This document shows, piece after piece, positions 1,861-23,400 of a DNA stretch of 64,000 nt. How positions within the stretch are numbered: the stretch's first letter is position 1; every line of letters begins with the position of its first letter. This stretch comes from Deltaproteobacteria bacterium (GTDB lineage: Bacteria; Myxococcota_A; Polyangia; Polyangiales; Houyiibacteriaceae): assembly GCA_034670305.1 (NCBI GenBank), contig JAXMNT010000014.1, forward strand, positions 1 to 64,000, read 5' to 3'. The notes under the pieces are model-generated. The model made no database searches, was not told where the DNA came from, and worked only from the letters and a program-made list of their open reading frames with translations. A program made the position numbers and the translations under genes.

Positions 1861-2595
1861 TTACTCGGTCGCGATCCCAAGCGCGTGGGCGCGTTCTTCG
1901 CGCAGACGCTGATACGGCGGGCACCAGTCCGCCGCCGGGTCCCCGAGCCACGCCCGCACCGGAATGAGCCCGCGCGCCGCCAGATCGCGCAAGAGCCGTG
2001 CCTCCTCGGCCGGTTCCCTCGAGAAGCCAAACGGGTTGCGGGGCCGACCGTCGGAGAGCTTCGGGTACTTCTCGTCGTCGTTGGCGATCAGCAACAGCAG
2101 CTCGTGGCCGCGCCGCCAGGTGTAGCTGAGAAACGGCTGGTCGAACGGCGCGACCGATGCGCGCGCTTCGCTGTCGCGGGCGACCCACTTCGCCCAGTCG
2201 AAGCCGTACATGAAGTCGTGGACGTATCGAAAGTGAATCGGCGTGGCTTGTCCGAAGAGCGCCTGCAGCGAGACGACCGTCGCGCTCGTCGCCGCCAACG
2301 TCGCCGCATCCGGCTGGCGCGCGAGCGACGCGGCAAGCGCATCGAAGTCCCAAAAGACGTTCTCGGGAAACGCCTCGAGCTGAGCGCGCACGATGCGGTG
2401 CAGGGCGCGGGCGAACGGAGCGCGAAGTTCGGGCCGCGTCTCGGGGGCGAACCGATCGAAGAGTGCCACCAGAGGCGTCGCCTCCGATCGCTCCGGCGAG
2501 AGCGTCGCGCGGTGATCGCCCGCCCGCAGGACCTCGTCGAGTGCTTCGAGCAGCCCCCGCGTACGGGCCACACGGGTCGGGAGCGGGGTGTGCAT
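1861..2595 (-). CDS. Hypothetical protein (last gene of the operon)
   Basis: ATG at 2595, 8 nt after the menA stop. Globular composition with conserved-looking motifs FPENVFWDFD, FRYVHDFMYGFDWAKWV and RNPFGF. Confidence 0.75.
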   Translation of the reverse strand: MHTPLPTRVARTRGLLEALDEVLRAGDHRATLSPERSEATPLVALFDRFAPETRPELRAPFARALHRIVRAQLEAFPENVFWDFDALAASLARQPDAATLAATSATVVSLQALFGQATPIHFRYVHDFMYGFDWAKWVARDSEARASVAPFDQPFLSYTWRRGHELLLLIANDDEKYPKLSDGRPRNPFGFSREPAEEARLLRDLAARGLIPVRAWLGDPAADWCPPYQRLREERAHALGIATE

Positions 2596-2603
2596 GGAGC
2601 GCT

Positions 2604-3593
2604 TCAGAAGAAGAGGCGGTGTAGCACCAGCAGTCCAGCGAGCCACTGCGCGCTGTTCCAGAACGCGCGGTGGAGCACGTCCTTGTAGCGGCGCTGCGCG
2701 TCGAACGCGTTCGTCACCGCAGCCGGGCTCAGCGCCACCAGCGTCCGGAGGTAGTAGGCGAGCACCAGCGCGCCGAACACCGCGACCACGAGCGGAATGT
2801 GCGCGCTGAAGATCCCCGCGAGCAGCCAGAAGATCGCCGCGAGCAAGACGTTCAGCTCTGTGAAGCGCCGGGCCATCGGGTTGCCGAGCATCGTCGTGAA
2901 GGTTCGTTTGCCACCTTTGCGGTCGCTGACTTCGTCACTCAGTCCGCTCGCGATCGCGCTCGCGAACGCCAGCGCGCACACGCCGGGAAGGATCGCCCAG
3001 GGACGCGGCAACCAGGTGAGCGACTCCACGCCGAGCCCGCCCTGCGCGTAGGCGTTGATCCACGGGAGCACGAGCCCGACACCGAACATCTCGAGCAACT
3101 CGCCGCCGCCCCGGTAGTTGAGCTTGAGCGGCCAGAGGCTGTAGCCGGCGAACACCGCGAGCGCGCCGAGGGTCGCGATGCCCATGAGCGGCCGGCCGAG
3201 CCACTCGTTGCAGAAGTACCCGAACCCGACCGCTGCCGCGGTGAACACCAGCGCGCCGAGCGCCACGTGGCCTGCGCTCAAGATGCCGTCGGGAATGGTC
3301 TTCGGGGAGCACGACGTCGGGAAGAGGCGCCGCTTGAGTCCATCGACCTCGCGGTCGGCCAGATCGTTGGAGAGCACGATCGCGCCGAGCAACAGAAAGG
3401 TGAGCCCGAGTCCACCGGCCGCGCTGACGAGATCCACCCCGCCGAGGTGTGCTGCGCCGATCGCCTGACCCACGAATGCGGGCACGAAGAGCTTCGGCCA
3501 GCTGGCGGGTTTGAGTGCGTAGCGCCAGCGGCGGTAAGGAGTCACGGGTTCAGTCTCAGGCTGCAACCCGGCCTCGGCAACCCTTGAATACAA
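2604..3593 (-). CDS. menA: UbiA-family prenyltransferase, 1,4-dihydroxy-2-naphthoate polyprenyltransferase-like
   Basis: Multiple TM helices; Asp-rich motifs NDLADREVD and DEVSDRKGGKRT; YS..PLKLNYRG.GE. Confidence 0.8.
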   Translation of the reverse strand: MYSRVAEAGLQPETEPVTPYRRWRYALKPASWPKLFVPAFVGQAIGAAHLGGVDLVSAAGGLGLTFLLLGAIVLSNDLADREVDGLKRRLFPTSCSPKTIPDGILSAGHVALGALVFTAAAVGFGYFCNEWLGRPLMGIATLGALAVFAGYSLWPLKLNYRGGGELLEMFGVGLVLPWINAYAQGGLGVESLTWLPRPWAILPGVCALAFASAIASGLSDEVSDRKGGKRTFTTMLGNPMARRFTELNVLLAAIFWLLAGIFSAHIPLVVAVFGALVLAYYLRTLVALSPAAVTNAFDAQRRYKDVLHRAFWNSAQWLAGLLVLHRLFF

Positions 3594-3596
3594 AGG

Positions 3597-4628
3597 TCAT
3601 GTCGCCCAATCGGGCAGCGGCGGCGCCTCGGCGAGCCGTTCGGTCTGATCCACGGAGCTCAAGGTGTTCACGAACATCAGAGGCCGCTGGGTGCGCGGTG
3701 CGTCCCGCAGCAGCGCAGCCATCGCGCGCGCGGTGTAGGTCGCGTCGAGGGTCAGTCCCTCTTGGTTCGCGAGCACGCTCGCCTGGGCGGCGCGGGCGTC
3801 GGCACCACCGTAACCGCTGCCGTAGAAGTCGTGCTCCAGTTCGATCGCCCCCAGCGCCGCGCGCGTGACGGCGGGGAAACTCGGCGCGGTCTTTCGGAGT
3901 GTGCGCATGGTGTTGGCGACCAGCGTCGCGATGGTGGCGCGGTTGCACACGAGGCGCGGCGTGACGCGCACCGCGCGCACCTTCGTCGTGAGCCCCGACG
4001 CCGCCAGACCGATCGCCAACCCCGCCGCCGTTCCGCCGCTGCCGAGCGCGACGTACACCGCCTCGGGCTCCGGGCAGTGGCCCGTCGCGATCTGCTCCGC
4101 CAACTCGAACGCAGCTTCGACGTATCCGAGGGTGCCCGCCGATGAGGACCCTCCGTACGCGACTCGGTAGGGCGTGTGGCCGCGGGCCCGGAGCCCCGCC
4201 GACACCGTGCTCATCTTGGTGATCACCGCGGGCCAGGTCGACACCTGGTGCAGCTCCGCACCCACCGAGAGATCGAGCCGCAGGTTTTCCTCCACGTGGG
4301 GAGAGAGCGGCTGCGGCACCACCACCGCGCTGACCTCGAACCCCCACTTGCGCCCGAACAGACTCGTCGCGAGGACGTGGTGCGACCCCCACGCACCTGC
4401 GGTCACGAGGGCGTCGCATCCCTGCCGGCGCGCGTCGCCCAGCACGAACTCGAGCTTGCGCACCTTGTTGCCGCCGTAGAGATCGGCGGTGAGGTCGTCC
4501 CGCTTCACCCAGAGGTCGCCCCCGGTCTCGCTCGAGAGCCGCTTCATGGGCTCGACCGGGGTCGTGCGGGAGAGCGGGAGATGGGGCACGAGCGCCAGGG
4601 CGGGAAACCGAGTCGCGAGCAGCGTCAT
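3597..4628 (-). CDS. PLP-dependent D-cysteine desulfhydrase / ACC deaminase family enzyme
   Basis: WVKRDDLT...GGNKVRKLEF, GAWGSHH, ALGSGGTAAGL and LDATYTARAM motifs; ATGA overlap with the upstream mscS stop. Confidence 0.9.
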   Translation of the reverse strand: MTLLATRFPALALVPHLPLSRTTPVEPMKRLSSETGGDLWVKRDDLTADLYGGNKVRKLEFVLGDARRQGCDALVTAGAWGSHHVLATSLFGRKWGFEVSAVVVPQPLSPHVEENLRLDLSVGAELHQVSTWPAVITKMSTVSAGLRARGHTPYRVAYGGSSSAGTLGYVEAAFELAEQIATGHCPEPEAVYVALGSGGTAAGLAIGLAASGLTTKVRAVRVTPRLVCNRATIATLVANTMRTLRKTAPSFPAVTRAALGAIELEHDFYGSGYGGADARAAQASVLANQEGLTLDATYTARAMAALLRDAPRTQRPLMFVNTLSSVDQTERLAEAPPLPDWAT

Positions 4629-5971
4629 GCATTCTCCGGGGGCGGCGGATCTGGTTCCGCCTGGGGCTTGGGCGCTTCGGCCGCGAGCAACATCTCCGCG
4701 CGCTCCAAGAGCTCGCCCTCGAACCGGGCGCCGAAGGTGGCGTCGAGCAGTCGGCCTTGCACCCGCCAAAGCGCGGGGTCGTCGGGATCCCGGAGCACCG
4801 AAGGCACCGAGCCCGGAAACACCCAGGGCGAGAACAACGCGGCGTCGCGAAGCGCCAACCGAATCCGCTCGGCGGTGGCATCCGAGCCGAGGCGCACCAA
4901 CACCTCGTGTTCGTCCGCGTGCCCGCTGGTGGCGACCACCGGCTTCTGAAGCACGAACCGGTTCGGCAGATCGATGCGGCGGCCTTGGGCGTCGCGGAGC
5001 GTCGTCGATCGCAACCCGGTCTGCTCCACCTTGCCAGAGAAGCCCGGTCCGCTGATCCACAGCCCCGGTCGGATGCGGTGTTCGAACGCCATGACGAACC
5101 CAGCGACCAAATCCGGCAACACGTCGCGCATCGACCATCCGAGCGCGACCGCGAACCCGCCGAACGCGAGCAACATCACGAGCGAAAGCCGGGGAGGCAG
5201 CAGCCGCAAGATGAACGCGAGCGCGAGGCCGACCACGAGCAAGCGCACGACGAGGTGCGCGACCGCGAGCAGCCCGGGCACGACGCCGCGCTGCGGGAAC
5301 CGCCCGCGCACCCGGCGCACGACCACCGCCGCGATCATCGCGAGCGCGAGCCCGAGCAGAAGCAGGAGCAGCCCTTGCGTGGTCCGCCCGCTGGCGAACA
5401 AGTTCGCCATGCCTTCCACCTCTTGCTCGAACCAGTCGGCTTCCTCGACGGCGACCGGCGCTACTGGAACCGGCAACGCCACGGGCTCTGGCGCCGCGAC
5501 CGGCGCACGCTCTTCGGCTTCGCCTTGGGCCCGCTGCAGGGCCAGCGCCGCCTGCGTCGCCGCGGTGGCTGCCGCCTCCGCGATCTGTTCTGCGCGGAGC
5601 GCGGCGGCGGCTTCCGCCTCGGCTTCGGCTTCTGCTTCCGCCGCGGCGACCGCTGCTGCGTCGGCGATGGCTTCCGCCGCCAGAGCTGCTTCCGCGGCCT
5701 GTTCCGCGAGTCGCGCGGCCTCTTGTTCGCGCGCGAGCCTGGCCGCTTCCATCGCGCTGCCCGCGCTGCCCGCATCCACCGCTGCCGCACCTTCGGCCTC
5801 GCCCTCCGCCGGCGGGTCCTGAGCTTCGGCGGGGGCCGGGTCTTGCGCGGCGGGGGCCACCGCGGCCGTGCCGGCATCGACCGGCGGCTGCGCGCGTGCG
5901 TCCCCCGAGCCGATCGCGAAGATCACCCACGCGGCAAACACCGCCCGGCACATGCCTCCGAGACCGGTCAC
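4625..5971 (-). CDS. MscS-family mechanosensitive channel with a long Ala/Glu-rich periplasmic N-terminus
   Basis: Signal peptide, Ala/Glu helical region and 3 TM helices, then A(L)GWSMRDVLPDLVAG...IRPG.WI...GKVEQTGLRSTTL...IDLPN. Start is GTG 5971 (GTGA overlap) or ATG 5953. Confidence 0.85.
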   Translation of the reverse strand: MTGLGGMCRAVFAAWVIFAIGSGDARAQPPVDAGTAAVAPAAQDPAPAEAQDPPAEGEAEGAAAVDAGSAGSAMEAARLAREQEAARLAEQAAEAALAAEAIADAAAVAAAEAEAEAEAEAAAALRAEQIAEAAATAATQAALALQRAQGEAEERAPVAAPEPVALPVPVAPVAVEEADWFEQEVEGMANLFASGRTTQGLLLLLLGLALAMIAAVVVRRVRGRFPQRGVVPGLLAVAHLVVRLLVVGLALAFILRLLPPRLSLVMLLAFGGFAVALGWSMRDVLPDLVAGFVMAFEHRIRPGLWISGPGFSGKVEQTGLRSTTLRDAQGRRIDLPNRFVLQKPVVATSGHADEHEVLVRLGSDATAERIRLALRDAALFSPWVFPGSVPSVLRDPDDPALWRVQGRLLDATFGARFEGELLERAEMLLAAEAPKPQAEPDPPPPENA

Positions 5972-8900
5972 GGCGCCCACCCCTTGTCTCGCAACGTCCG
6001 CACCACCGCGCCACGCAGGTGAATCGCCACCCGGTACGCCAAGGTCTCGATCGGCGGCGGACCCTCGTCGCCGTTCTTCTTCTTGTACACACCGCCACCG
6101 ACGACCACCGGGCGGGCCGTCAAGACGCCGAGGTTGCCGAGCTGCGCGAGCCGAGCCCGCGCCACCGGTACCTCGATCTGGAACGCGGCCGCGAGCCCAT
6201 CCGCGTCGATCCACCCCTGCCGGATGATGGTGAGCAGCAAGACCAGATCCTCATCGACCAGGCGGCGCACTGCGCTGAGGCCCTCGGCGGGCAACGGGCC
6301 GACGTGGACGATGTCGTCGTGTTCGATCGTGCGGATCGACGCGAGCCAGAGCCGCAACGCATCCCGGATGAGTCCGCCCGTCGCGACGTGAAGATCTTGG
6401 AAGTACTGCTCGTACGGGCGACGGATCCGACTGGCCGACCGGGATACGAAGCCTTCGCCGCGGTCGCTCAGCGCGCTCTCGAACGCATGCCCGAAGCCAC
6501 TGAGTCGGTGTCGCTCCATCACCGCCGCCTGCAGCCCCGCTTGGTCCAGTGGCTCGAGCTCGATCAGCTCGCCAAAGGCTTCCCGCAAGGGCGCCGCCAC
6601 CGACGCGTAGTTCCAGAGCAGGACCTCCGCGAGCACGAGCCACGAGCGGCGTCCGCGGTCCGCCACCACACCATCGACGAACCGGCGAAGCGGGGCGAAT
6701 CCATTGGGGCCGGGAGACACGAGCCAGCCGAGTCCGTCCACCACCACCAGCTGCGCGTTGGCGGTGTCGGCCAGAAGGCGCTCCACGCTCTCGACGGTCT
6801 GCGGCCCGTCGAGTGAGACCCGCTGCATGTTCTTCCAGCGCCCACCACGCACGATCGCGCTCGCCACCGAGGCCTTGCCGACTCCGTCGAGTCCGACGAG
6901 CGCCACGGTCCGCAGGTGCCCCGCGCTCGTGTCCTCGAGCGCTTCGCGTGCACGTCGGATCGCTTCTTCGCGGCCGGTGAGGACGTCGCCCGCCTCGAGG
7001 GTGTCGGCCGCGAAGAGCCGGCGGTACACGAGCGGTACCTTCGTCTTCTCCTTCGGGGGGGCGAAGTGGCTGCGGTCGAGCGCAACCAGCTCCCCCTTCG
7101 TACGCAGCCCGAGCCGCATCCGGAACGCCGCCCAGCGGTTGCGTCCAACCAGCGAGACCAGCGCATCCGCACTCTGGCGCCAGAACTCCCGCACCGCATC
7201 GGGCAACTCGGTCGCGCGCTGGGCCAAGCGGCGGCGGGCGGCGTCGCGTTTGAGTTCGTCGACTTTGGCGCGGCTGATGTCGCCGTCCACCAGCTGACCG
7301 CGCAGTTCCCCGAGCGCACCGAGCACGGCTTCGCGCACCGAACCACCGAGCGAGGCCGGCAAGTCCTGCACGCCCTTCAGGTGCGCTTGGAGCACCGACA
7401 GACTTCGATCCAGCTGTCCGCCGATCATCTCACCGAGAAGCGCCTTGGTGCTCTCCGGCACCTGCTCCTCGTGCACCACCTCGAGCTCCGCGGTGGCGAG
7501 TTCGACGTTGAACGCGATCACGCGCTCCGCTTCCTTGAGAGAGCCGATGAGCGGCTGCAGTTGTTCGGCGGCGTCGCGGGTCGCGCGGAGCAGCTGAGGC
7601 GCGATGCGCAACTCGACATGACCCGACGCCACCTCGCGGAACGGCACCTCGACCCGCTGAAGCACGGGCGGGAGTTTGTATTCGCCCCGCTGCAGTCGAC
7701 CGGCCACGACGAGGTAGTTCGAGGTCAGCTCGCTCGCGGCTTTGCCGAGCGCGTCGAGAAGCGGCGCGACCTTCTCCTGCTCGAGCAGTTCGTCTCGAAG
7801 CTCACGCACGATGCGGCCGGTCTCTCCGGCGATCTTCTCCGCTTGTTCGGTCTGCGTCCGCAGGGCGGTCGCCATCTCGTCACCGGTCGAACTCTTGCGG
7901 AGTTCGGCGTCGACGTGGGCCAACGTCTCCCGAAGTGCCTCTTCGGTGCGGGCCGCCTGCTGCAGCGCGCGTCGGGAGACCTCTCCTTCGAGTTTGGACG
8001 CGTGCGACGCGAGCAAGTGTTTCACCCGCGCCTCGAGGCCGACGAGTTCGAACTCCATCGCGAGCAGCGCGAACTCACCGGCGTTCGAGCCGCGCAGCTC
8101 GTTCACCGTCTCGCCCAAGATGTGGAGCGCCTTGATGCGTTCGGCGAACGCGCGGCTGCTGCGGCGGGTGTGCGCCGGCAACTCCAGCGTCTCGATGACC
8201 GGAGCTTCTTCCCGGATCGTGCGCAGCGCGAGCGCAAGCAACCGGCCGGTGCGGACCGCGCCGCCACTCGAGATGCGGGTGATCTCGTCCATGGCGAGCA
8301 ACAGCTCCGTCTCGACATCGCTGCGGACGGTCGCGAGCCCCTGCTGAATCGTCTCGCCCTTGACCGCCGGGTCCATCGTCGCTTCGGCGAGGCGGTCGTA
8401 CGACTCGATGATTCCGTCGAAGAGGTTCCGCGTGCGCCCTGCGATGTGCTGCTCGGCCTGCACCAGGAGCGCGGCCACACCTTCGAGTCGCACCGGCGTC
8501 TCGAACGAGAGATGGAAACGCGCCAACGACTGCAGCGCGATGGTGCGCGGCGCCAGGTCGCGTCCGAAGGCGCGGGCGAAACCCCGCCGCATGCGGGCCA
8601 ACGAGCGGCGAATGCGCAGCAGTGGACCGTCGGAAGGTTTGGTCTCGAAGACCCGCGGGTCCCAGGGGATCTCCACGTGTTCGAGCAGACGCTCCACCGC
8701 TTCGTCGACCGACTCCACGATGCCGTCGGGCGTCCACGGCGGGCGTTGCCCGAGCTGAGAGGCGCGCGTCAACGCGATCGAACGCCAGGCCTCCGCGAGC
8801 TCGCCCTGTTCGGCGCGCAACGTCTTCGAGAGTTCTTCCCGGGCTGCCTGGCGTTCCTTGTCGTCCTCCACGCCCACGGACCGCGCTTGCACCGTCAGCC

Positions 8901-10908
8901 GCCGATGGTGCCGCAGAAACTCCCGCCGCAGATCCCGCAGGTAGTGCTCCCCGTCGTCGCGGAAGTCCACCATCGGTCCGTCGGCCAGCGAGTGCACGAT
9001 CGCCTGTAGGTCGTGTTCGAGCTCCCGCAGCTCCCGGTCCAACGCAGGACTGAGGTGCGTCGCTTCGCCCCACTCGATGAGCTCGTCGTCCGCACTCCAG
9101 GCTTGGAAGGTGCGCCTCGGCACCTCGTCCGGTCCCTCGTCGACGAGCTCTTCTTGCACCGCTTCTTTCGCGTGCGCCGCATCCCCCGTCTCTTTCGCCC
9201 GGCTCAAGCCGACCTTCAGGAGGATGGGTCCGAGGATCTCGTTGAGCGCGACGCCGGCGATGAGCAGAGAGCTGAGCGTCTCACCGACGTCGCCGAAGCG
9301 CGTCTTCACGAACCCCGCCAGCGTGATCGCGACGCCGGCCTGCGAGATGAAACCCATCCAGCCGTACTTGCGGGTGTTCTCGTCCGCGGCGCCGACCAGG
9401 CCACCGATGCGCACGCCGATCCACACCGCCAGGATGCGCACGCCGACGAGCGCGATGGCGAAGAAGAACAGATGCACCACCTCGTCGAGGTGGAGTTTGG
9501 CGCCCGCGAGCGTGAAGAACACGACGTAGACCGGCGTGCTGAGCTTCTCCACCTCGTGCATCAACGTGTCGCCGCTGCGCGAGAAGTTGGAGACGGTGAA
9601 CCCGCCGGCGAGGAACACGAGCACCGAGTCGAGGTGGGTCGCGTTGCACACGAACGTGCCGGTGTAGACCACCCCGAGAATGAAGAGCATCAGCTCCTTC
9701 TTCACGAAGCGCATGTAGAGCGCGATGGCGATGCCGAGCACGACGCCCATGCCGATCGAGCCGCCGATCTCGAAGGCGAGTTTGCCGGCGAGGTTGCCGT
9801 CTTCTCCCTGGCCGAGCGCGCCGAGCGCCATGGCCGAGAACACCCCGAAGAGGATGATGACGAACACATCTTTGAGGACGACCGTGCTCAGCACAGTGCT
9901 GGTCATCGGACCCTTGGAACGGGTCTCGTTGATGACCGCGATCGTTGCGGCCGGCGACGTCGCGAACGAGATCGCGCCGAGCGTCAGGCCGATCGGGATC
10001 ACCGCGTTGCCGACCTCCCCGAGGTCCGGCAGCGCGAGGAAAGGAACGGCGCCACTGATGAGCCAGAACAGACCGGTGGTCATGGCGAGCACCACCACCA
10101 GCTGCCCGAGCAGAACGGAGAAGATCGCCCGGAAGCCCTGTTTCAACGCCTCGAGTTTGAGTTCGCCACCTGCGCTGATCGCGATGAGCGCGACGGCGAG
10201 GACCTCGAGTGGGCCGAGCTGTTTGATCACCTCGTCGTGCAGCACGCCGCGATCGAACGGCGCCCAGAGTTCGAACGAGATGAACCCTGCGATCGAGGGT
10301 CCGAAGAACATGCCCGCGAGCAGGTAGCCGGTGATGTGCGGCAGCTTGATGACGTCGACGAGCACGCCGATCGTGAAGCTCGCGAGCACCACGAACCCGA
10401 GCGCCAACATCGCCGTCGGATCGAACCCTTCGGACGCGGACGTGCCGAACCGGTGCAAGCCGATCAGCGTGACGATCAGGATGCAGACGATGATCAGCTG
10501 CCGAAGCGTCGCCCCCTGCCCGCGCACATGCCCATGCCCGCCGTGGTCGTGCTCTTCGTGCCGATCGTTGTCGGCCTCGTCGTCCGCATCCTCCGGCGTC
10601 GGGTCCTGCGCGACATTGGACCCAGCGTCAGAGTCAGAGTCGGCATCGGCATCGGCATCGGCATCGGCGTCGGCTTCGGCATCGGCTTCGGCGTCGGCTT
10701 CGGCGTCGGCGTCGGCGTCGGCGTCGGCTTCGGCTTCGGCTTCGGCGTCGGCTTCCGCTTCCGCTTCCGCTTCCGCTTCCGCTTCCGCTTCCGCTACCGC
10801 TACCGCTTCCGCTTCCGCTTCCGCTTCCGCTTCCGCTTCCGCTTCCGCGCCCGCTTCGGCTTCGGCTTCCGCTTCGGTGGTGACCTCGTCTTCGTCTTCG
10901 ACGCTCAT
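5968..10908 (-). CDS. Cation:proton antiporter (CPA) fused to a long helical region and a C-terminal P-loop (AAA-like)/winged-helix region, ~1646 aa
   Basis: ATG at 10908 overlaps the trkH stop (ATGA). Acidic/His-rich N-terminus; CPA motifs LPHITGYLLAG, ATSPAATIAVINE, TVVLKD, VVFFTLAGA and SQAGVAI; Walker A-like GLDGVGKAS and Walker B-like LVVVDG; C-terminal GGLIRDALRLWL. Confidence 0.85.
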   Translation of the reverse strand: MSVEDEDEVTTEAEAEAEAGAEAEAEAEAEAEAEAVAVAEAEAEAEAEAEAEADAEAEAEADADADADAEADAEADAEADADADADADADSDSDAGSNVAQDPTPEDADDEADNDRHEEHDHGGHGHVRGQGATLRQLIIVCILIVTLIGLHRFGTSASEGFDPTAMLALGFVVLASFTIGVLVDVIKLPHITGYLLAGMFFGPSIAGFISFELWAPFDRGVLHDEVIKQLGPLEVLAVALIAISAGGELKLEALKQGFRAIFSVLLGQLVVVLAMTTGLFWLISGAVPFLALPDLGEVGNAVIPIGLTLGAISFATSPAATIAVINETRSKGPMTSTVLSTVVLKDVFVIILFGVFSAMALGALGQGEDGNLAGKLAFEIGGSIGMGVVLGIAIALYMRFVKKELMLFILGVVYTGTFVCNATHLDSVLVFLAGGFTVSNFSRSGDTLMHEVEKLSTPVYVVFFTLAGAKLHLDEVVHLFFFAIALVGVRILAVWIGVRIGGLVGAADENTRKYGWMGFISQAGVAITLAGFVKTRFGDVGETLSSLLIAGVALNEILGPILLKVGLSRAKETGDAAHAKEAVQEELVDEGPDEVPRRTFQAWSADDELIEWGEATHLSPALDRELRELEHDLQAIVHSLADGPMVDFRDDGEHYLRDLRREFLRHHRRLTVQARSVGVEDDKERQAAREELSKTLRAEQGELAEAWRSIALTRASQLGQRPPWTPDGIVESVDEAVERLLEHVEIPWDPRVFETKPSDGPLLRIRRSLARMRRGFARAFGRDLAPRTIALQSLARFHLSFETPVRLEGVAALLVQAEQHIAGRTRNLFDGIIESYDRLAEATMDPAVKGETIQQGLATVRSDVETELLLAMDEITRISSGGAVRTGRLLALALRTIREEAPVIETLELPAHTRRSSRAFAERIKALHILGETVNELRGSNAGEFALLAMEFELVGLEARVKHLLASHASKLEGEVSRRALQQAARTEEALRETLAHVDAELRKSSTGDEMATALRTQTEQAEKIAGETGRIVRELRDELLEQEKVAPLLDALGKAASELTSNYLVVAGRLQRGEYKLPPVLQRVEVPFREVASGHVELRIAPQLLRATRDAAEQLQPLIGSLKEAERVIAFNVELATAELEVVHEEQVPESTKALLGEMIGGQLDRSLSVLQAHLKGVQDLPASLGGSVREAVLGALGELRGQLVDGDISRAKVDELKRDAARRRLAQRATELPDAVREFWRQSADALVSLVGRNRWAAFRMRLGLRTKGELVALDRSHFAPPKEKTKVPLVYRRLFAADTLEAGDVLTGREEAIRRAREALEDTSAGHLRTVALVGLDGVGKASVASAIVRGGRWKNMQRVSLDGPQTVESVERLLADTANAQLVVVDGLGWLVSPGPNGFAPLRRFVDGVVADRGRRSWLVLAEVLLWNYASVAAPLREAFGELIELEPLDQAGLQAAVMERHRLSGFGHAFESALSDRGEGFVSRSASRIRRPYEQYFQDLHVATGGLIRDALRLWLASIRTIEHDDIVHVGPLPAEGLSAVRRLVDEDLVLLLTIIRQGWIDADGLAAAFQIEVPVARARLAQLGNLGVLTARPVVVGGGVYKKKNGDEGPPPIETLAYRVAIHLRGAVVRTLRDKGWAP
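10627..10876. repeat. In-frame hexamer tandem repeat (GGCTTC/CGCTTC/GGCGTC/GGCATC)n encoding poly-(EA)/(DA)
   Basis: Directly visible 6-nt periodicity; translates to EAEAEA...DADADA on the minus strand. Confidence 0.95.
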
Positions 10909-12413
10909 CGTTTCCAGAACTCCGGCAGCAGCAACGCGAGCACCGTGAAGAACTCGAGCCGACCGAGAAGCATCGCGACGACCGCCACCGACTTCGAGAC
11001 GGCGGAGTACTGCGAGAAGTTGTCGGGCATGTGGGCGAGCTCGTGGAAGGGCGCCGGGCCCATGTTGGAGACGCAGGTCAACATCGCACCGAACGCCGAC
11101 GGCAAAGGCACCCCATCCACCGTCGCGACGATCGCCGCACCCGCGCCGATCGTGATCAGGTACACCGCGAAGAAGGTCATCACCGTTGCGAGCACCGGGC
11201 GGCTGACCACCCGGCTGCCGAGCCGCACCACCTGCACCATGGAGGGTGCGAAGGACTGGCGAATCTCGGTGAGGGTTTCTTTGGCGACGATCACCGTCCG
11301 TTCGACTTTCATGCCGCCCGCGGTGCTTCCCGAACACCCTCCGACGAACATCAGACCCAGCATGATCGCGAGCCCGGCTTGGCCGAAGAGCGCGTAGTCG
11401 TCGGTGCCGTACCCGGTCGAGGAGACGGTGGTGGCGACCATGAAGAGCGCATAGCGAAGGGAGTCGAGCGGCTTCGGGTGCAGATCCAGGTTCAGGAGGG
11501 TGAGCAGTGCCGTCGACACCACGACGATACCCACGAACGCACGGAACTCGACGTTGCGCGTGATGGTGGAGAGTTTTCGACCCCGAAGCACCAGGTAGTA
11601 GAGGCCGTAGTTCACGCTGCCCACGAGCATGAACAGAGCGATGACCCACTCGAATGCCGGCACGCCGAAGCCGCCCACCGACGCGTCGCGGGTGGAGAAG
11701 CCACCCGTCGACATGGTGGTCAGCCCATGACAGACGGCCTCGAACACATCCATGCCGAGCAGCGCGAGGATCACGATCTCCGCCACCGTGAACGCCGCGT
11801 AGAGTTTCCAGAGCGTGACCGACGTCTCGGCGATGCGCGGCTTGAACCCTTCGGCTTCGGCGCCCGGCGCTTCGTTCTTGTAGAGCTGCTTGCCGGTGGT
11901 GCCGAGGTTCGGGAACACCGCCACGAAGAGCACCACGATGCCCATGCCGCCGAGCCACTGCGACATGGAACGCCAGAGGAGCAAGGGGCGGCTCAGCCGG
12001 GTTTCGATGTCACCGATGACGGTCGCGCCAGTGGTCGTGAGGCCGCTGACGGATTCGAACAGCGCATCGACCGGAGAGAGCCCGGCGCCCAGCACAAAGG
12101 GCAGCGCCCCGCACACGCCCGCCGCGACCCAGATCGCGGTCACCGCCAGCATCGCTTGCCGCCGGGTGAAGTTCTCTTGCGTCGAGCGCCTGCCCCAGCC
12201 TCGAACCAGCACCCCGACCACGACGCAGACCGCCGCAGAGATCAAACACGCGAACCCGCCGCCGGTGGGAAGCGACGCGTTGGGAGCCGCGAAGTCCCAG
12301 ATCATGCCCGTCCCGCCGCACACCGCGATCATGACGCCCAGGCCCAAGATCACCGCGCCGGTGGGGCGGGCGACGGGACGGAAGTCGCGAAAGCTGGTGG
12401 CGGCTGCGATCAA
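10905..12413 (-). CDS. trkH: TrkH-family potassium uptake channel
   Basis: Pore-loop motifs FESVSGLTTTGAT, TTMSTGGFS, VSSTGY, GGCSGSTAGGMK and SNMGP; C-terminal MLLGRLEFF; TTG start at 12413 overlaps the trkA stop. Confidence 0.93.
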   Translation of the reverse strand: MIAAATSFRDFRPVARPTGAVILGLGVMIAVCGGTGMIWDFAAPNASLPTGGGFACLISAAVCVVVGVLVRGWGRRSTQENFTRRQAMLAVTAIWVAAGVCGALPFVLGAGLSPVDALFESVSGLTTTGATVIGDIETRLSRPLLLWRSMSQWLGGMGIVVLFVAVFPNLGTTGKQLYKNEAPGAEAEGFKPRIAETSVTLWKLYAAFTVAEIVILALLGMDVFEAVCHGLTTMSTGGFSTRDASVGGFGVPAFEWVIALFMLVGSVNYGLYYLVLRGRKLSTITRNVEFRAFVGIVVVSTALLTLLNLDLHPKPLDSLRYALFMVATTVSSTGYGTDDYALFGQAGLAIMLGLMFVGGCSGSTAGGMKVERTVIVAKETLTEIRQSFAPSMVQVVRLGSRVVSRPVLATVMTFFAVYLITIGAGAAIVATVDGVPLPSAFGAMLTCVSNMGPAPFHELAHMPDNFSQYSAVSKSVAVVAMLLGRLEFFTVLALLLPEFWKR

Positions 12414-13753
12414 CGGTCGGTGCCTTTGCCGCGGAAGAGACGCTCGAGGCCCGGACGCGCGGCCCCGATGGTCATCGCGATCACCCGGTCGCCGTGGCGT
12501 ACGACGTCGTCGCCGCGCGGAATGACGACCTCGTCGTCGGTGATGATCGCGCAGAGCAAGACGCCCTTGGGGAGGCGCAGCCGCCGCAGCGGTTTGTCCA
12601 CGATGACCGCGCCACGCGCCGCGTAGAGCTCCACGACTTCGATGCGGCCACCCTCGAGCTGGTGGAGGCTCTGCACGAGCGAGGTCCGAGCGAATCGAAA
12701 GATGTGATGCGACGCGAGCGTGCGCGGCGACAGGACGATGTCGATGCCCAGCTGCCGGTAAATGGTCGCGTACTCTGCGTCGTCGACGATCGCTGCGGCG
12801 CGCGGCACCCCGGCGCGCTTCGCGATCAGTGCCGCCATCAGGTTCACCTCGTCCTGGCGGGTCACGCACGCGCACAGGTCGTACGAGTCCACCTCGAGTT
12901 CCTCGAGGAGCTTCGAATCGGTTCCGTCGCCGTGGTGGATGAGCACGTCCGGATGTTCGGCCGCGAGTTTCAGCGCGACGGCCGGATCCTTCTCGACGAT
13001 GGTGACCTTCGCGCCCTGCGGCAACACTTCGCGCGCGAGCGCCTGACCGACCACGCCGCCGCCGATGATGATGATGCGGCGCGCTTCCCGTTTGGTGGAG
13101 AACAGGCTCTCCGCTTGGAGCACCGCGTCGGGCGTGCCGATGAGGTAGACCGTGTCGCCGGGCAGGAGCACATCCGCGCCCCCGGGCACGACGATCTCGC
13201 CGTCCCGCACGTACGCGGCGACGAGGGTGCCGACCGGGAGTGGGATCTTCGACAGCGGCTTGTTCGCCATGCGGGAGGTCATCTCCATCTCGACGAGCTC
13301 GACCCGGTCGGACGCCAGATGCAGCACGTCGACCGCGCCGTGGGACCACGCGATGCGGCCAAGCTCTTGGCCGACGAGCACGCGCGGGTTGATGACCACA
13401 TCGACGCCGAGCAGCCCGTAGCGAATGCCTTCGGTCCAGCGGGCCCACTCGTTGCCCTGGGCGCGCGCGACAACGGTCTTCGCGCCGAGTTGTTTGGCGG
13501 CGAGCGCCGCGATCAGATTCACCTCGTCGTGGTTCGTGACCGCGACGACGAGGTCGGCTTTGCCCACGCCGGCCATGTCGAGGATCTCTTGGCTCGCGCC
13601 GTAGCCGGTCAGCGTCGAGACATCGAAGTGTTCTTCCGCGTTGGACGTGGCGACCGCATCGTTGTCGACCGCGACGACGTCGTGCCCCTCGTGCTGCAAC
13701 ACGCTCAGCAGGTGGCGGCCTACTTCGCCAAGTCCAATGACCACGATGTACAT
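12410..13753 (-). CDS. trkA: Trk system potassium uptake RCK subunit TrkA
   Basis: Two Rossmann GxGxxG motifs (IGLGEVG, IGGGVVG), two DEVNL motifs and two RCK-C domains; TGATG overlap with the upstream gene. Confidence 0.95.
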   Translation of the reverse strand: MYIVVIGLGEVGRHLLSVLQHEGHDVVAVDNDAVATSNAEEHFDVSTLTGYGASQEILDMAGVGKADLVVAVTNHDEVNLIAALAAKQLGAKTVVARAQGNEWARWTEGIRYGLLGVDVVINPRVLVGQELGRIAWSHGAVDVLHLASDRVELVEMEMTSRMANKPLSKIPLPVGTLVAAYVRDGEIVVPGGADVLLPGDTVYLIGTPDAVLQAESLFSTKREARRIIIIGGGVVGQALAREVLPQGAKVTIVEKDPAVALKLAAEHPDVLIHHGDGTDSKLLEELEVDSYDLCACVTRQDEVNLMAALIAKRAGVPRAAAIVDDAEYATIYRQLGIDIVLSPRTLASHHIFRFARTSLVQSLHQLEGGRIEVVELYAARGAVIVDKPLRRLRLPKGVLLCAIITDDEVVIPRGDDVVRHGDRVIAMTIGAARPGLERLFRGKGTDR

Positions 13754-15153
13754 CAGGCGTGCGCTCCTTGAGGGTCGGGTGCCTCGGGCACCTCGTCGGG
13801 TTCGCGCTCTCGGCGGATGTCGCCCGCGTCGACCAGCAGACCGAGCAGGACGCGCGGTGCGACCAGATCGTGCAAGACCGTGGAGGCGAGCGCGACGGTG
13901 TACGCCACGTCCACGACCACTCCGTCGAACACCACCTGGAACGACACCGCCATCGCCACGGCGACCTCGCCGTGCGCCATGAACCCGCGGTAGAGATCGG
14001 GCCGCATCTCGTCCATGCCCCAGGCGGCCAGGCGGCTTGCGAGCCGCTTGCCGACGTAGCGCAGCACCAGGAACCCGCCGAGTGCGATGAGGGTCGGGAT
14101 GAGCGGCGGCGGCTTCCAGAGCGCGCCGGCGAGCACGAAGAGCACGAGGTTGATCGGCTTCTCGGTGGTGCGGAGCGTCTGGTACATGATCGCGCCGGTC
14201 TTCGCGACGTTCACGAGCACGATGCCAAGCACCACGTTGACCGCGAGCGGTGAGAGATCGAGGAAGTACGCCGCGCCGGCGGCGAACGTGATGATCCCGA
14301 CCATGGCCAAGAAGCGGCCGTGTTCGTCTTCGTTGCCTCCCAGGAAGGGCGTGAAGAGACCACCGAGCACAGCGCCGACGCCGAGCTGCACGAGGAACCA
14401 TCCAGACGCCGAGAGGTGCAGCTGCGCGTCGGGCGCGGAGCGGTGGAAGAAGCAGAACACCAGACCGAAACAGAAGATGACCAGCACGTCGCTCAGCCGC
14501 GTGCACTCGCGCAGCTGGGACGTCAGCGATCCTTGGATGTCGTAGCGACGGCGAAGCACATCGAACGGCTCGGCGGAGTCGCTCGCGGCGCAACACGCCA
14601 GCATCAGGCAGCTCGCCGCCACCTCGCGCCAACCCATCGAACCCGTCCCGTACGGTGCGAAGAGGTACCCGCCCCACTCTCCCCAGAAGAACCACCACGC
14701 GAGCCCACCGACGAGTGCGCCGGGCACCAGCAAGTGGAGCATCACGATCCGGAACGTGCCCGTGCCTTGGCCGAACTGAACCTTGGATGGCCCCGTCAGC
14801 TGCAGCTCCATCCCGCGCAGCAGACCGACCCACCCGGCGGCGAGCGCGATGACGGGCAACATGCCGGTCAGATCGTCGAGCACATGAATCTGAGGAACGG
14901 CGGGTCCGAGTGCGAGGCCGAGCAGCACGTACTCGACACCCGCGATGATCAGGAAACGCTGCTGGAGCCGGTCGACGACCAGGTGGCCGAGCACGTAGGC
15001 CACAGCCACGCCGATGAGGAACAGGACAACGGTGAGCGTGCCCGCACCACCCGCCTCTCCCCCACCCGACGCAAACGCGACGGACGGCGCCGCAACGCTG
15101 GCGATGACGCCAAGCAGGAGTGCGGGCCACAGAGGTCGGGGAGATGGACGCAT
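13753..15153 (-). CDS. Membrane-only, divergent cation:proton antiporter-like protein
   Basis: About 12 hydrophobic segments; GVEYVLLGLALGP, GWVGLLRGMEL, LSPLAVNVVLG and EKPINLVLFVLAGA; ATG at 15153. Confidence 0.75.
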   Translation of the reverse strand: MRPSPRPLWPALLLGVIASVAAPSVAFASGGGEAGGAGTLTVVLFLIGVAVAYVLGHLVVDRLQQRFLIIAGVEYVLLGLALGPAVPQIHVLDDLTGMLPVIALAAGWVGLLRGMELQLTGPSKVQFGQGTGTFRIVMLHLLVPGALVGGLAWWFFWGEWGGYLFAPYGTGSMGWREVAASCLMLACCAASDSAEPFDVLRRRYDIQGSLTSQLRECTRLSDVLVIFCFGLVFCFFHRSAPDAQLHLSASGWFLVQLGVGAVLGGLFTPFLGGNEDEHGRFLAMVGIITFAAGAAYFLDLSPLAVNVVLGIVLVNVAKTGAIMYQTLRTTEKPINLVLFVLAGALWKPPPLIPTLIALGGFLVLRYVGKRLASRLAAWGMDEMRPDLYRGFMAHGEVAVAMAVSFQVVFDGVVVDVAYTVALASTVLHDLVAPRVLLGLLVDAGDIRREREPDEVPEAPDPQGAHA

Positions 15154-15358
15154 GGGGGGAAACAGTGTGAAGGCCCCAGCGAAAATCCGCGAAAGAATCG
15201 TGTGCTCACGTGAACAGAGGATCAGAGGCGTTCGGATGGCACCGGTGCAGTGCAAGGACACCCGACGCTGGGACCAGGTCACACCCGATGCCGGTTGGGC
15301 CGCGATTCGAGCCGTCTGAAGGGAAGGAGCGTCGCCTGGGTCCGTACTCTCCAACGTC

Positions 15359-16210
15359 ATGAGCGCCAAAGACCTCAAGTCGCGTCCCTTCTCACCGGCG
15401 CCCCCGCGTCACAAACCGAGCGGCGTCTACCCGTGTGAGCCGGCTCCGCTCCCCGTGCCGATGATCACCGGAAACTACGACGCGCCGGCCATCCCGAAGA
15501 CGCCCATGGCCTCACCGGCGTACGGACAGCTCGTCGACGGCGCGCCGGAGCTCACCGAGCCGATCGACCTCACCGCGCTGGCGGCGGGCACGGTGGCTCC
15601 AGGATTCGTGGGGGCGACCACGCTTCGAGATGGGGACCTTCCAGCGCAGTCCCGCGAGCCCACCGACGAAGAGCTCGACGCTGCCTTTGGACCGGCGGTC
15701 GCGCGCCCGCTCTTCGAGCCCGAAGACCCCGCTTCGGGAGGCTTCCAGCCGGACCCCGAGACCGCATCGCCGTCCGAGCCCCCTTCGGGAGGCTTCGCCG
15801 GGCCGAGCGAGGAGACCGGTCCCGTGACGACGTTTGGCTACCAGATGCGTGACCCGGCCAGCGAAGCGCTGGACGAGATCGAAATCGAAATCGAGATCGA
15901 AGTCGAGACCCCGGTCCGCTTGGAGGCGGCACTGGCATGGCAGAGCCAGAGCCAGCTCTGGGTGGACGGAGAAGGCACCATCGGCATCTTCTTGGCCAGC
16001 TACACCGTCCTTCCGATCGGCGCGGAGATCGAACTCCACGTGCACCTTCCCGGCGAGCAGCCGTTCACCGCCCCCGCCCGGGTCTGTTGGCTGCGCGAAG
16101 GCAGCGAGGGCAGCTGGCCGGGCCTCGGCCTGGAGCTCGAGTGGCTCACCCTCGAAGCGCACGATGCGATCGCGCGCTTCGCGCAGATGCGCCGCCCGTT
16201 GGCTCTGTAG
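15359..16210 (+). CDS. PilZ-like (TIGR02266-type) domain protein with a disordered N-terminus
   Basis: C-terminal GIFLASYTVLPIGAEIEL...LPGEQPF..PARVCW.RE....PGLGLE. Confidence 0.75.
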   Translation: MSAKDLKSRPFSPAPPRHKPSGVYPCEPAPLPVPMITGNYDAPAIPKTPMASPAYGQLVDGAPELTEPIDLTALAAGTVAPGFVGATTLRDGDLPAQSREPTDEELDAAFGPAVARPLFEPEDPASGGFQPDPETASPSEPPSGGFAGPSEETGPVTTFGYQMRDPASEALDEIEIEIEIEVETPVRLEAALAWQSQSQLWVDGEGTIGIFLASYTVLPIGAEIELHVHLPGEQPFTAPARVCWLREGSEGSWPGLGLELEWLTLEAHDAIARFAQMRRPLAL

Positions 16211-20103: not shown

Positions 20104-20437
20104 GAACTCTCGTACTGCGAACATTGGTCAGCTCCCCTCCGCCTACGGTAGTCGCATTTCGAGCGGAACAACACCCGTCCCGGCCCCCGTTTGCGGACCC
20201 GTCCGACCCAGCGCACCGAGCTGGCGAGGGACGGAATGAAACGACGTGCGGGACGGGTTTCGTCCGCATTGCGGGCTGCTATGCTCCGCCGCCTCCGCTC
20301 GCCCGAGCGGTACTGTCTCTCGCGAGGGAGGCTCTGTTCCAGAGCCGTTTCCAAGGGCCCCAAGACGGCCGAAGGCATCTGGGCCCGCAGGAACCCCGCG
20401 AGAGACAAGACACTTTGGACCTGACTTGGATGAGCGC

Positions 20438-23400
20438 ATGAGTGACGAGAACGAAGACCCCCAAGACGTGCCGGATCCGGACGCCCCAGAGACGGGCGCC
20501 CGCGACTCGGTCGAGTCGGAGACCGACCAGGAGGTCGATCGCGACGACGCGGGCGAGCACGAAGGCGACTCGGACGACTCGGACGAGGACTCGGACGACG
20601 ACTCGAACGAGGCCAACGACGACGCGGAGTCCGACGAAGACGACGCGGCATCCGACGAAGACGACGCGGCATCCGACGAAGACGACGCGGCATCCGTCGA
20701 CGACTCGAACGCGGACGACTCGGACGCGGCCGCGGGTGCGGACGCCGACGACGTGAACACCGATGAGGACGCGGCGGCTTCGAAGTCGAAGAAGGGTGCC
20801 GGTTCGAAGAAGAAGTCGAAGAAGAAGAAGTCGAAGAAGAAGAAGTCCAAGCCGGCCGAAAGCGAAGCGGCCGCGCACGAAGCGAACGACGAGCGCGAAG
20901 CGAACGACGAGCGCGAAGCGTCGGACACGGACCCGGAGCGACCCGCACGGACGCACACGCAGACCATTCGAGGCGCGGTGTTGTTCGCGCTCGGCGGCCT
21001 CTCGACGTTCTGTCTGATGGCCAACGTGGATCAGGTCCCGCACGGCGCGCTCGTCGGCACCTTCACGCTCGGCGTCATGGTGTTCGGTCTGCTCGAACTG
21101 ACGGGGTTGCTCCGCGCCGCGAGCGACCAAGCGGTGGACTGGCGCGGCACCGCACTCGGCCGACTCGAAGGCGAGGCGGCCTGGATGCAGCCGCTCTACA
21201 CCGTGCCCACGGCACTCTTCATCCTGCTCGGTGGCGGCCTTCTCGGCGGCTACGACATGCTCCCGAAGGTGATCGTCGCCGCGCTCTGCGCGCTGCTTCC
21301 GAGTGCGATCCGGCGACCCGGCATGCTCGTGTTCACGCTCGTCGGGCTGATGTACCTGCCGCTGCTCGGCACGTTCTCGCTCTGGGATCCGTGGGAGACG
21401 CACTACGGCGAGGTCGCCCGCGAGGTCCTCTCCCGCGACGACTGGATCAGCACGTGGTGGGCGCAAGAGAACTGGTTCTGGTCCAAGCCCATTCTGATCT
21501 TCTGGACCGAGGCGTATTCGATGAGCGCCTGGGGCGTCGACTTCCATCCCGACGCCAACCCGCTCCATCCGGAGTGGGCGATCCGCAGCCCGGTGTGCGC
21601 GTTCGCCATCTGCGCCGTCATGTGCGTCTACGGGTCGATCAAACGCATCTTCGGCACGCGTGCCGCCGCGCTCTCCGCGCTCGTGCTCGCCACCGCGCCG
21701 CACTACTTCTTCCTGTCGCACCAGGCGATCACCGACATGTTCCTCGTGTCGAACGTCGTCATGGCGATGTGCATGCTCGCGCTGGCGTTCGCCGAAGATC
21801 CCGATCACCGAGTGCGCGAGGTCCGGCTCTTCGGGCGCGGCTTCAGCGCCCACACCGCGGTGGTCGGCGGGCTCCTGATGTTGGCGCTCCCGCAGGCGCT
21901 CTACCTCATCACCCGCAACATCGAGTTCCACTCCGGCTTCGGCGACGCCAGCTTCGGTTTCGCGTTCCACATGGACGAGATGATGTACGGGTCGGCCGGC
22001 AACACCGGCATCCCAGGCAACCCCGAAGTGCGCATGCAGCCCCCCCACCTCGACATCTGGTGGGGTCAGCCGCTCGCGCAAGGTCTTCTGTGGCTGAGCG
22101 TGCTCACCGGCGCCGTCTTCTTGCTGCGCAAGACCTGGCGGGTGCAGCGCCTCCAGATGACGGCCTTCTACATCTTCTGCGCGCTCGCGTTCATGGGCAA
22201 AGGCATCCCTGGATTGGCGCTGCCCGGTCTCATCGCGCTGCTCTACCTGGTCGCGTCGCGCCGGTGGAACGTGCTCGGCGACGGCCAGCTCCGGGTCGGA
22301 CCCGGCATCCTCGTCGCCGCGTGCGTGGGCTTGCCTTGGTACGTCGCGATGTTCGGCCGGCACGGTGCCGGGTTCACGGATCGGCTCCTGATCCACGACC
22401 ACATCAACCGGCTCGCCCAAGGCGTGCACGGCGACACGGGCAGCATCCAGTATTTCTTGTGGCAGCTCGGCTACGCGACCTTCCCTTGGGTCGCGCTCAT
22501 CCCCGCGTCGGTCCTCGCGTGGCTTTGGATGCGCGACCGCGGCGTCACCGTCGGCGCCCACAAGTCACCGCGCGGCCCCTACCGCACCGCGACCTCGAGC
22601 ACCTACCTCCAAGACGAGGAACGTCGGCGCCAGACCTTGATGTTGATCGGCATCTGGTTCTTCGCCTCGTTCGCGCTCTTCAGCGCGATGATCACCAAGT
22701 TCCACCACTACATCTTCCCCGCGGTACCGCCGGCCGCGATCCTCGTCGGCGTCGTGCTCGACCGGTTCTGGGGACGTGTCGAAGGCAGCGTTCGGGGCGC
22801 GCAGATCGCGACGGTGGTCGCGGTGCTCTCTCCTTTGCCGCTCATCCTCGGCATCGGCGGCCTGTGGGGCAACCTGCGCGGCGTGGTGCCTGAAGAGGTG
22901 CCTGCACCCGAGCGCGGCGACTGGGTGCTCGACCACGGCATGTCGACGGTGCTCGCCTATGGGCTGGTCTTCGTCGGGGCGGCCGCGCTGGCGTGGTCTG
23001 GACGTTGGTTGTGGCGCCATCGAATGGTGCACACCCGATCGCGCGAGACGCGGCGCGAAGATCTCAGTCTCAGCGTGGCGGTGGGTGCCGGCACGATGCT
23101 GGTCGCGTTCGTCGGCCGGGATCTGAGCTGGGTGACCTCCGCACGGCCCCAGGGGTACGAGCGGCTCATCCACCTCTTCGTCTACAACTACGGCCGACCG
23201 TGGCCTGACCACTTCGACTTCCGACCCATCCTGACCGGCTTCGCGATCGTGGCCGCCTCGCTGATGGCGCTGATGGCCATTCGCGCGTCCCGCGAAGTCG
23301 CATCCCGGGCGATCATTGGCATGGCGCTCCTCTTCGGCGGGTGGGTGCTCAACGTCTACATGGTCGACTTGGCACCCCACTGGGGCATGAAAGAGATCTT

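Follow-up and report, generated by a model that had tools for sequence, protein, structure and literature searches.

Why should a bacterial cation/proton antiporter (CPA) be prolonged, within one polypeptide, by a long helical stalk and an AAA+/winged-helix module, and be encoded immediately upstream of an mscS-like channel gene? The question is raised by a gene in a 64,000-nucleotide stretch of contig JAXMNT010000014.1 from a Deltaproteobacteria bacterium of the order Polyangiales; this whole stretch is called the window below. The antiporter-stalk-AAA+ fusion is real and conserved, and complex modelling tips the balance towards the hypothesis that its module acts as an MscS-docking adaptor, likely a pseudo-ATPase in this protein, which would serve the control of K+ and turgor by tethering the antiporter to an MscS-like heptamer of its own, dedicated subfamily. 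The fusion and its partner comprise the following parts:

5968..10908, minus strand: fusion gene of 1646 amino acids (aa); from the N-terminus, an acidic repeat, the CPA antiporter, a helical stalk of two repeats, an AAA+ domain and a winged helix.
10519..10908, minus strand: low-complexity tail at the N-terminus (aa 1-130), made of Ala, Glu and Asp and including a short His-rich segment; it is lineage-restricted and of uncertain length.
9169..10518, minus strand: cation/proton antiporter membrane domain, aa 131-580, with TSP at 317-319, K346-D347 replacing the ND/DD motif, and invariant R491.
8092..9069, minus strand: helical stalk repeat 1, about aa 614-939 (model and hhalign).
7072..8091, minus strand: helical stalk repeat 2, about aa 940-1279 (model and hhalign).
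6274..7056, minus strand: Cdc6/ORC-like AAA+ core plus lid (about aa 1285-1545), in which Walker A (GKAS) and Walker B (DG) are decayed.
Within it, minus strand: AAA+ part of the predicted MscS contact, loop PGPNGF 1399-1404 and helix 1430-1438 (complex prediction).
5971..6261, minus strand: winged helix, about aa 1550-1646, of which 1556-1563, 1574-1577 and 1643-1646 are predicted to contact MscS.
4625..5971, minus strand: dedicated MscS-like partner of 448 aa, with a likely signal peptide (by eye), a low-complexity linker, a three-helix core and the cage.
Within it, minus strand: predicted contact at residues 376-389 and 419-431 (complex prediction).

The open reading frame (ORF) of the fusion is open throughout in the translation of 5968-10908. 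Its ATG overlaps the trkH stop codon (ATGA at 10908-10905) and its stop overlaps the GTG start codon of mscS (GTGA at 5971-5968). Pfam assigns Na_H_Exchanger (PF00999) to aa 175-558 (E 1.6e-22; 80.3 bits for a gathering threshold of 26.2), in agreement with a preliminary description of this DNA that had read here a single uninterrupted ORF of about 1646 aa with a CPA membrane domain. The Walker A, Walker B and other motifs quoted in that description were all located (VLTGREE at 1309, GLDGVGKAS at 1339, LVVVDG at 1387 and GGLIRDALRLW at 1511). Used as a query, aa 600-1646 retrieves 211 protein relatives; the 120 matches listed show 44-59% identity over nearly the entire region, most of them carry PF00999 and the named ones come from Polyangiales/Myxococcota. 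These relatives dispose of the possibility, raised at the outset, that the fusion is an assembly artefact. Two public runs, possibly the window's own source, each have a contig that covers positions 4500-10665 without a difference. The Ala/Glu/Asp repeat at about 10640-10850 is bridged by no listed contig and only the exact length of that repeat is unsure; an acidic N-terminal extension longer than 60 aa is found in 9/221 proteins. NCBIfam matches to the fusion were discarded as low-complexity artefacts of the acidic repeat, and a plasmid search for the fusion gave zero matches. Elsewhere in the window (20246-23692, plus strand), a large membrane protein, by eye a glycosyltransferase of the ArnT/PMT type, has a long Asp/Glu-rich N-terminal tail resembling that of the fusion.

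The AlphaFold2 model of aa 600-1646, built from 41 sequences, has a mean predicted local distance difference test (pLDDT) of 89.6 and a predicted TM-score (pTM) of 0.60. Foldseek places Cdc6/Orc1 first among its structural relatives (E 1.3e-5), followed by NLRs and RuvB; in VIA the Z-scores are 15.0 for NSF-D2 and 13.6 for Cdc6 2qby_A (258 aligned residues, root-mean-square deviation (rmsd) 6.9). Profile matches to Cdc6 (E 2.7e-6) and to the EutK winged helix (E 6.3e-7) concur: the AAA+ core, lid and winged helix are all present in Cdc6/ORC order, and the P-loop fold and helix-turn-helix-like tail suspected earlier are thereby borne out. Profiles were required for this assignment, the single-sequence search of solved structures with the P-loop part having returned nothing useful (best E 0.57). 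The Pfam AAA_16 match at aa 1310-1353 is sub-threshold (20.2 bits against a cut-off of 32.6). STAND NTPases carry a GxP motif in their helical domain; it is absent here (GGLIR), and several distant relatives have GNP or GHP.

A conserved linkage to mscS, which the preliminary description had proposed to look for, was found: an mscS-like gene lies directly downstream of the fusion in 56/60 phylum-wide loci and in 16/16 further divergent loci (72/76 in total), 36 of the 60 having served to build the MscS model and the 16 having entered no model. In the four genomes with an unlinked fusion, a dedicated orthologue is encoded elsewhere and scores 123-174 bits versus at most 109 for their other MscS; three of these four were placed in a tree, where they nest among the partners of the antiporter (CPA) class. 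Of 79 loci from named records of closely related bacteria, a set that may share genomes with the phylum-wide one, 58 have mscS, 13 stop at a contig edge, 6 are cut before the AAA part and 2 have no mscS, one of the latter being masked there. At one locus without mscS behind the fusion, the gene that follows resembles, by eye, a voltage-gated-type ion channel (L071:1160-1867, minus strand). Among 301 genomes of the phylum, the stalk is found in 75, the dedicated MscS in 61 (E 1e-32) and both in 58, whereas the dedicated MscS occurs in only 3 of the 226 genomes without the stalk. AAA and MscS distances correlate with rho 0.69 over 70 pairs.

The partner scores 40.8 bits against PF00924 (cut-off 20.2) and has profile matches to MscM, MscK and MscS, the MscM and MscK cores being its best solved relatives (E 2.4e-24 and 8.5e-23). 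Tension-gated conductance is a property of the MscS family. In MscS the C-terminal strand following the last cage helix has a role in the terminal barrel. The partner is without this usual strand and its ORF ends in a Pro-rich tail; a loose motif for the strand is absent in 35/42 CPA-class partners and present in 24/26 partners of a second class, termed periplasmic below, and in 8/11 MscS of the source genome. Mean identity among partners is 0.23 in the CPA class versus 0.49 in the periplasmic class. The source genome encodes 11 MscS proteins: three adjoin module genes and the eight ordinary ones form a separate branch (Shimodaira-Hasegawa-like approximate likelihood ratio test, SH-aLRT, 99) in what is a quick tree with several long branches. 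On these sequence grounds the partner is a dedicated MscS subfamily. The motif SP[WY] was tried as a signature of partner MscS and rejected as not clean, being found in 25/42 and 26/26 partners and also in 3/8 ordinary MscS. An ordinary paralogue is encoded in the window at 58574-58903 (plus strand). Past mscS, the gene run goes on at 2604-4640 (minus strand) with a pyridoxal-phosphate-dependent enzyme (PALP) and a UbiA prenyltransferase, both assigned by Pfam.

Complex prediction was carried out with aa 1285-1646 of the fusion and three copies of the partner cage (aa 282-432), using our own alignments. The docking score is 0.67 (0.67, 0.68 and 0.66 in separate runs) versus 0.01 for the best of three controls, so that the modelling of the MscS cage complex proposed in the preliminary description, done here with three cage copies, passes its controls. 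The score mark is reached by 116/157 solved complexes and by 2/215 mismatched pairs, counts that hold only roughly here because own alignments and three copies were used. At least 94% of the contacts are shared between runs, and the partner pLDDT is 76 or higher; we know of no solved MscS-AAA+ complex that the prediction could have copied. The predicted interface uses one MscS copy and involves its alpha-beta subdomain (376-389, 409-410, 419-431), facing residues 1399-1404 and 1430-1438 of the AAA+ part and 1556-1563, 1574-1577 and 1643-1646 of the winged helix. The contact-loop residue G1403 is kept in 108/113 antiporter-fused and 22/22 periplasmic-class proteins, more often than the Walker A lysine, and S381, P382 and P386 on the MscS side have conservation values of 0.73-0.85.

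The same AAA+/winged-helix module is found behind three membrane parts: the antiporter, an SLC12/amino-acid-permease (CCC-like) domain and a periplasmic/transmembrane (TM) half. Fusion of homologues to other transporters, which the preliminary description had proposed to test, is seen in the permease version, present in protein P0167 and on contig C52 of the source genome. On C52 it is a 1685-aa protein with an amino-acid-permease/CCC-like transporter, a helical region and the module (L190:3908-8965, minus strand), followed by a truncated mscS-like gene (L190:3150-4295, minus strand). Contig C12 of the same genome carries the periplasmic/TM-class module (L191:4413-8045, minus strand) with its own mscS at 3591-4409 (minus strand). 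The source genome therefore holds one member of each membrane-bound class, each adjoining its own mscS. Soluble stalk-AAA+ proteins exist as well, at loci L037 and L179; in the latter the gene (2250-5141, minus strand) has no antiporter domain and lies directly between trkH and mscS. The family comprises 3021 clusters (50% identity) at E 1e-30 or better and 6655 at 1e-3, a figure that includes generic AAA matches; Atlas look-alikes from Bacteroidota and Acidobacteriota offer a lead.

In the periplasmic class, known from 27 loci, a likely signal peptide precedes periplasmic helices and about 2-6 predicted TM segments; the stalk is lacking, and mscS follows in 27/27 loci. The alignment search for this class returned only two proteins. 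The model of its N-terminal half has a pLDDT of 85.4, and in Foldseek E. coli MscK ranks first and second (E 0.01 and 0.042; next 0.55), as had been predicted in advance, with a TM-score of only 0.16-0.18. The likeness to MscK is weak: the VIA Z of 11.3 (294 aligned residues, rmsd 9.9) is equalled by plain coiled coils, and no sequence similarity to MscK or to the Pfam MscK domains was found for the class.

The classes differ in the state of the ATPase site. In representatives at 60% identity, and taking as intact a GK[ST] together with two acidic Walker B residues, the Walker motifs are intact in 4/113 antiporter fusions, in 8/43 stalk-only proteins (some of them fragments) and in 12/22 periplasmic-class proteins. 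The Walker A lysine is retained here and in 68/113 antiporter fusions, and the lid residue Arg1466 is invariant (113/113 antiporter-fused, 22/22 periplasmic-class). Because the Walker motifs are decayed across the antiporter-fused class while the lysine is often kept, the module in the antiporter fusion is probably a pseudo-ATPase that perhaps still binds nucleotide. The idea of a non-hydrolysing scaffold, first suggested by the motifs of the single protein, gains support from this decay throughout the clade.

The stalk is made up of two copies, each about 330 aa long, that have diverged from one another (hhalign of repeat 1 versus repeat 2, E 7.9e-5, probability 61%; control of either half versus the AAA part, E 0.3-0.5). 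The helical region reported in the preliminary description is thus present, its length being about 690 aa (about aa 600-1285) instead of about 750. Among the 50 matches listed, the stalk matches only designed helical bundles (VIA Z up to 13.6), as part of a larger query and not searched alone.

The fused antiporter gives profile matches to NHE6, SOS1 and NapA; its CPA part, too, required profiles, the single-sequence search of solved structures giving 0 matches. The acidic ion-binding residue of CPA proteins occupies motif position 7 (D164 in EcNhaA) and the mark of CPA1 is a Glu at motif position 5 on TM5, according to PMC6181914. Position 7 is D347 here, the LKD of the fusion aligning with LND of NHE6, and it is D or E in 94/108 fused-antiporter representatives. 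The Glu at position 5 is absent (STVVLKD versus GESVLND in NHE6), which makes the protein CPA2-type by the rule given in that source. Electrogenic CPA2 proteins (NhaA/NapA) are marked by an Asp at position 6 followed, at position 8, by a Lys, and the fusion lacks this pattern: position 6 is K346, with K in 52/108 proteins and Asp outside the six commonest residues, and Arg is found in 107/108 at what is presumably position 8. The fused antiporter is likely an active, electroneutral CPA2-type exchanger, because D347 is kept and the second Asp, at position 6, is absent. In one relative (P0273), carboxypeptidase-regulatory-like beta-sandwich domains are inserted into a loop of the fused antiporter.

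Upstream of the fusion lie three further genes:

10905..12401, minus strand: trkH (Pfam), 5' end approximate.
12410..13753, minus strand: trkA (Pfam).
13753..15168, minus strand: paralogous degenerate CPA-fold membrane protein (hhalign), 5' end approximate.

The degenerate CPA matches the fused one in hhalign (99.8%, E 1.5e-30) and has an Arg-rich TM5, with zero matches in Pfam or PDB. It is found upstream of trkA in 18/20 and 56/56 loci having at least 4.5 kb of upstream DNA. We would guess that it is the heterodimer partner of the fused antiporter, in a two-gene antiporter. Beyond it, at 15359-16210 (plus strand), the window encodes a Pro/Glu-rich protein with a C-terminal PilZ domain (Pfam).

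How might these parts work together? In the docking-adaptor hypothesis, the AAA+/winged-helix module would bind the dedicated MscS-like channel at its cytoplasmic cage, and the helical stalk would tether the antiporter to the heptamer. The antiporter would be active and electroneutral, and the degenerate CPA encoded upstream is its probable partner. It would be switched when tension moves the MscS cage, and K+ (or Na+)/H+ exchange would in this way be tied to turgor, alongside TrkAH uptake. We privilege the channel-to-transporter direction because it is in the antiporter class that the ATPase motifs are lost and the MscS partners are the most divergent. More tentatively, the three classes can be seen as a widespread, as yet unnamed class of MscS supercomplexes, in which an AAA+/winged-helix adaptor would sit on each cage subunit and carry interchangeable cargos (antiporter, CCC-like permease or MscK-like sensor ring); in the antiporter version the ATPase would be dead and the channel would be the tension sensor that mechanically switches the transporter.

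Several points weigh against the docking-adaptor hypothesis. The docking job is unlike those on which the tool was calibrated, and its controls are unrelated proteins, none of them an ordinary MscS. Taken as a whole, the predicted interface does not exceed the remaining residues of either protein in conservation (AAA 0.41 vs 0.39, p 0.14; MscS 0.47 vs 0.45, p 0.32). Gene pairing and distance correlation are expected anyway since the operon is co-inherited, and related genomes do not count as independent cases. Some of the genomes scored for co-occurrence had also served to train the models; outside the training set, 32/49 stalk genomes passed the strict MscS cut-off. The acidic position 7 is missing in 14/108 fused antiporters. 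What we say of the signalling direction, of the ion and of the stoichiometry is inference only. Protein P0232, which seemed to be a natural single chain of antiporter, AAA and MscS, proved to be a frameshift artefact that leaves the AAA frame at aa 1331.

The alternative that survives best, although it seems rather unlikely to us, is control in reverse: the cage-bound module would report nucleotide level or the transport state of the antiporter and thereby open or shut the channel's cage fenestrations. Pairing and docking bear on it exactly as they do on the adaptor hypothesis, and the predicted contact lies on the alpha-beta subdomain, the part that gates MscM by rotating; the MscM TM7 extension (PMC13503660) is a precedent for such gating that serves the adaptor hypothesis as well. 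The periplasmic/TM class, with no transporter to regulate and intact Walker motifs in about half of its members, and the Walker A lysine retained in many antiporter fusions point the same way. However, the catalytic motifs of the CPA class are mostly lost, and the divergence of its MscS partners, together with the disappearance of the strand motif, is more in line with a scaffold or sensor than with a pore under tight constraint.

It is improbable that the genes merely share an osmotic-stress operon, the module regulating the antiporter in cis as a substitute for RCK, or binding DNA as a membrane-tethered regulator, with no MscS contact. The winged helix does match domains of EutK/MarR/ArsR type, the closest folds are the DNA-binding Cdc6/ORC proteins and the predicted recognition helix (about 1580-1593) lies outside the modelled interface; the negative conservation test and the four loci unlinked from mscS are also in keeping with this idea. 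Yet a dedicated mscS is the sole constant partner across three unrelated cargos and is retained even when unlinked, and the complex prediction passes its controls. Coupling of the antiporter to TrkA/TrkH potassium uptake by the module, with mscS a passenger, which the preliminary description had also entertained for TrkA, is very doubtful: trkA (18/20 and 56/56 loci) and trkH (16/20 and 54/56) are frequent upstream and the soluble stalk-AAA+ gene of L179 directly follows trkAH, but trkH is found in only 8/16 divergent loci (some with short flanks) against 16/16 for mscS, and no trk match was found in 8 periplasmic-class loci, whose upstream flanks are short.

The docking-adaptor architecture resembles known systems only in part. 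Like KefC, KefB and other CPA2 antiporters, the fusion joins a CPA-fold domain to a C-terminal cytoplasmic control part, and some of its relatives bear the public name 'Kef-type K+ transport system membrane component KefB'. KefC has a C-terminal RCK/KTN (TrkA_N) architecture. Unlike KefC/KefB, the fusion has about 1050 aa of stalk, AAA+ domain and winged helix in place of RCK (Pfam detects no TrkA_N/RCK in it at E 0.1), K-D at TM5 where those have N/Q/D-D, and a gene neighbourhood with a degenerate CPA paralogue upstream and mscS downstream. The module shares with Cdc6/Orc1 and STAND proteins an AAA+ core, a helical lid and a winged helix in the same order; it differs from them by its decayed Walker motifs, membrane anchor and predicted binding to a channel cage instead of DNA, and by the lack of C-terminal sensor repeats. 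E. coli MscK and MscM, whose cores are the best solved relatives of the partner, are single chains without ATPase, whereas here the extension has its own gene, which also encodes an AAA+ module. The bCNG channels are a precedent for an MscS-like channel that carries a nucleotide-binding domain (PMC13591265), and FtsZ-MscS is a described case of a protein binding the MscS cytoplasmic domain (PMC4440785); neither has an AAA+ subunit encoded beside the channel or a transporter tethered to it.

A literature search covering few subscription journals, with supplements outside it, found no description of an antiporter-AAA+/mscS pair. The transporter-adaptor-channel system is widespread and apparently undescribed, and it would be categorically new if the modelled binding holds. 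The present analysis adds the three classes in one genome, the retention of unlinked partners, the class-specific ATPase decay, the stalk repeat and a residue-level docking model. According to published descriptions, MscS channels need no accessory proteins to work, and the main text of a September 2026 review of bacterial MscS-like channels never uses the word 'ATPase' (PMC13591265). The predicted interface names specific residues for mutation. If the docking-adaptor hypothesis is true, it would offer one reason for the many MscS paralogues per genome, 11 here, and membrane tension would have a route by which it could control secondary transport, a direct link from turgor to transport. A dedicated AAA+ subunit linking MscS to ion transporters would then represent a new layer of bacterial osmoregulation.

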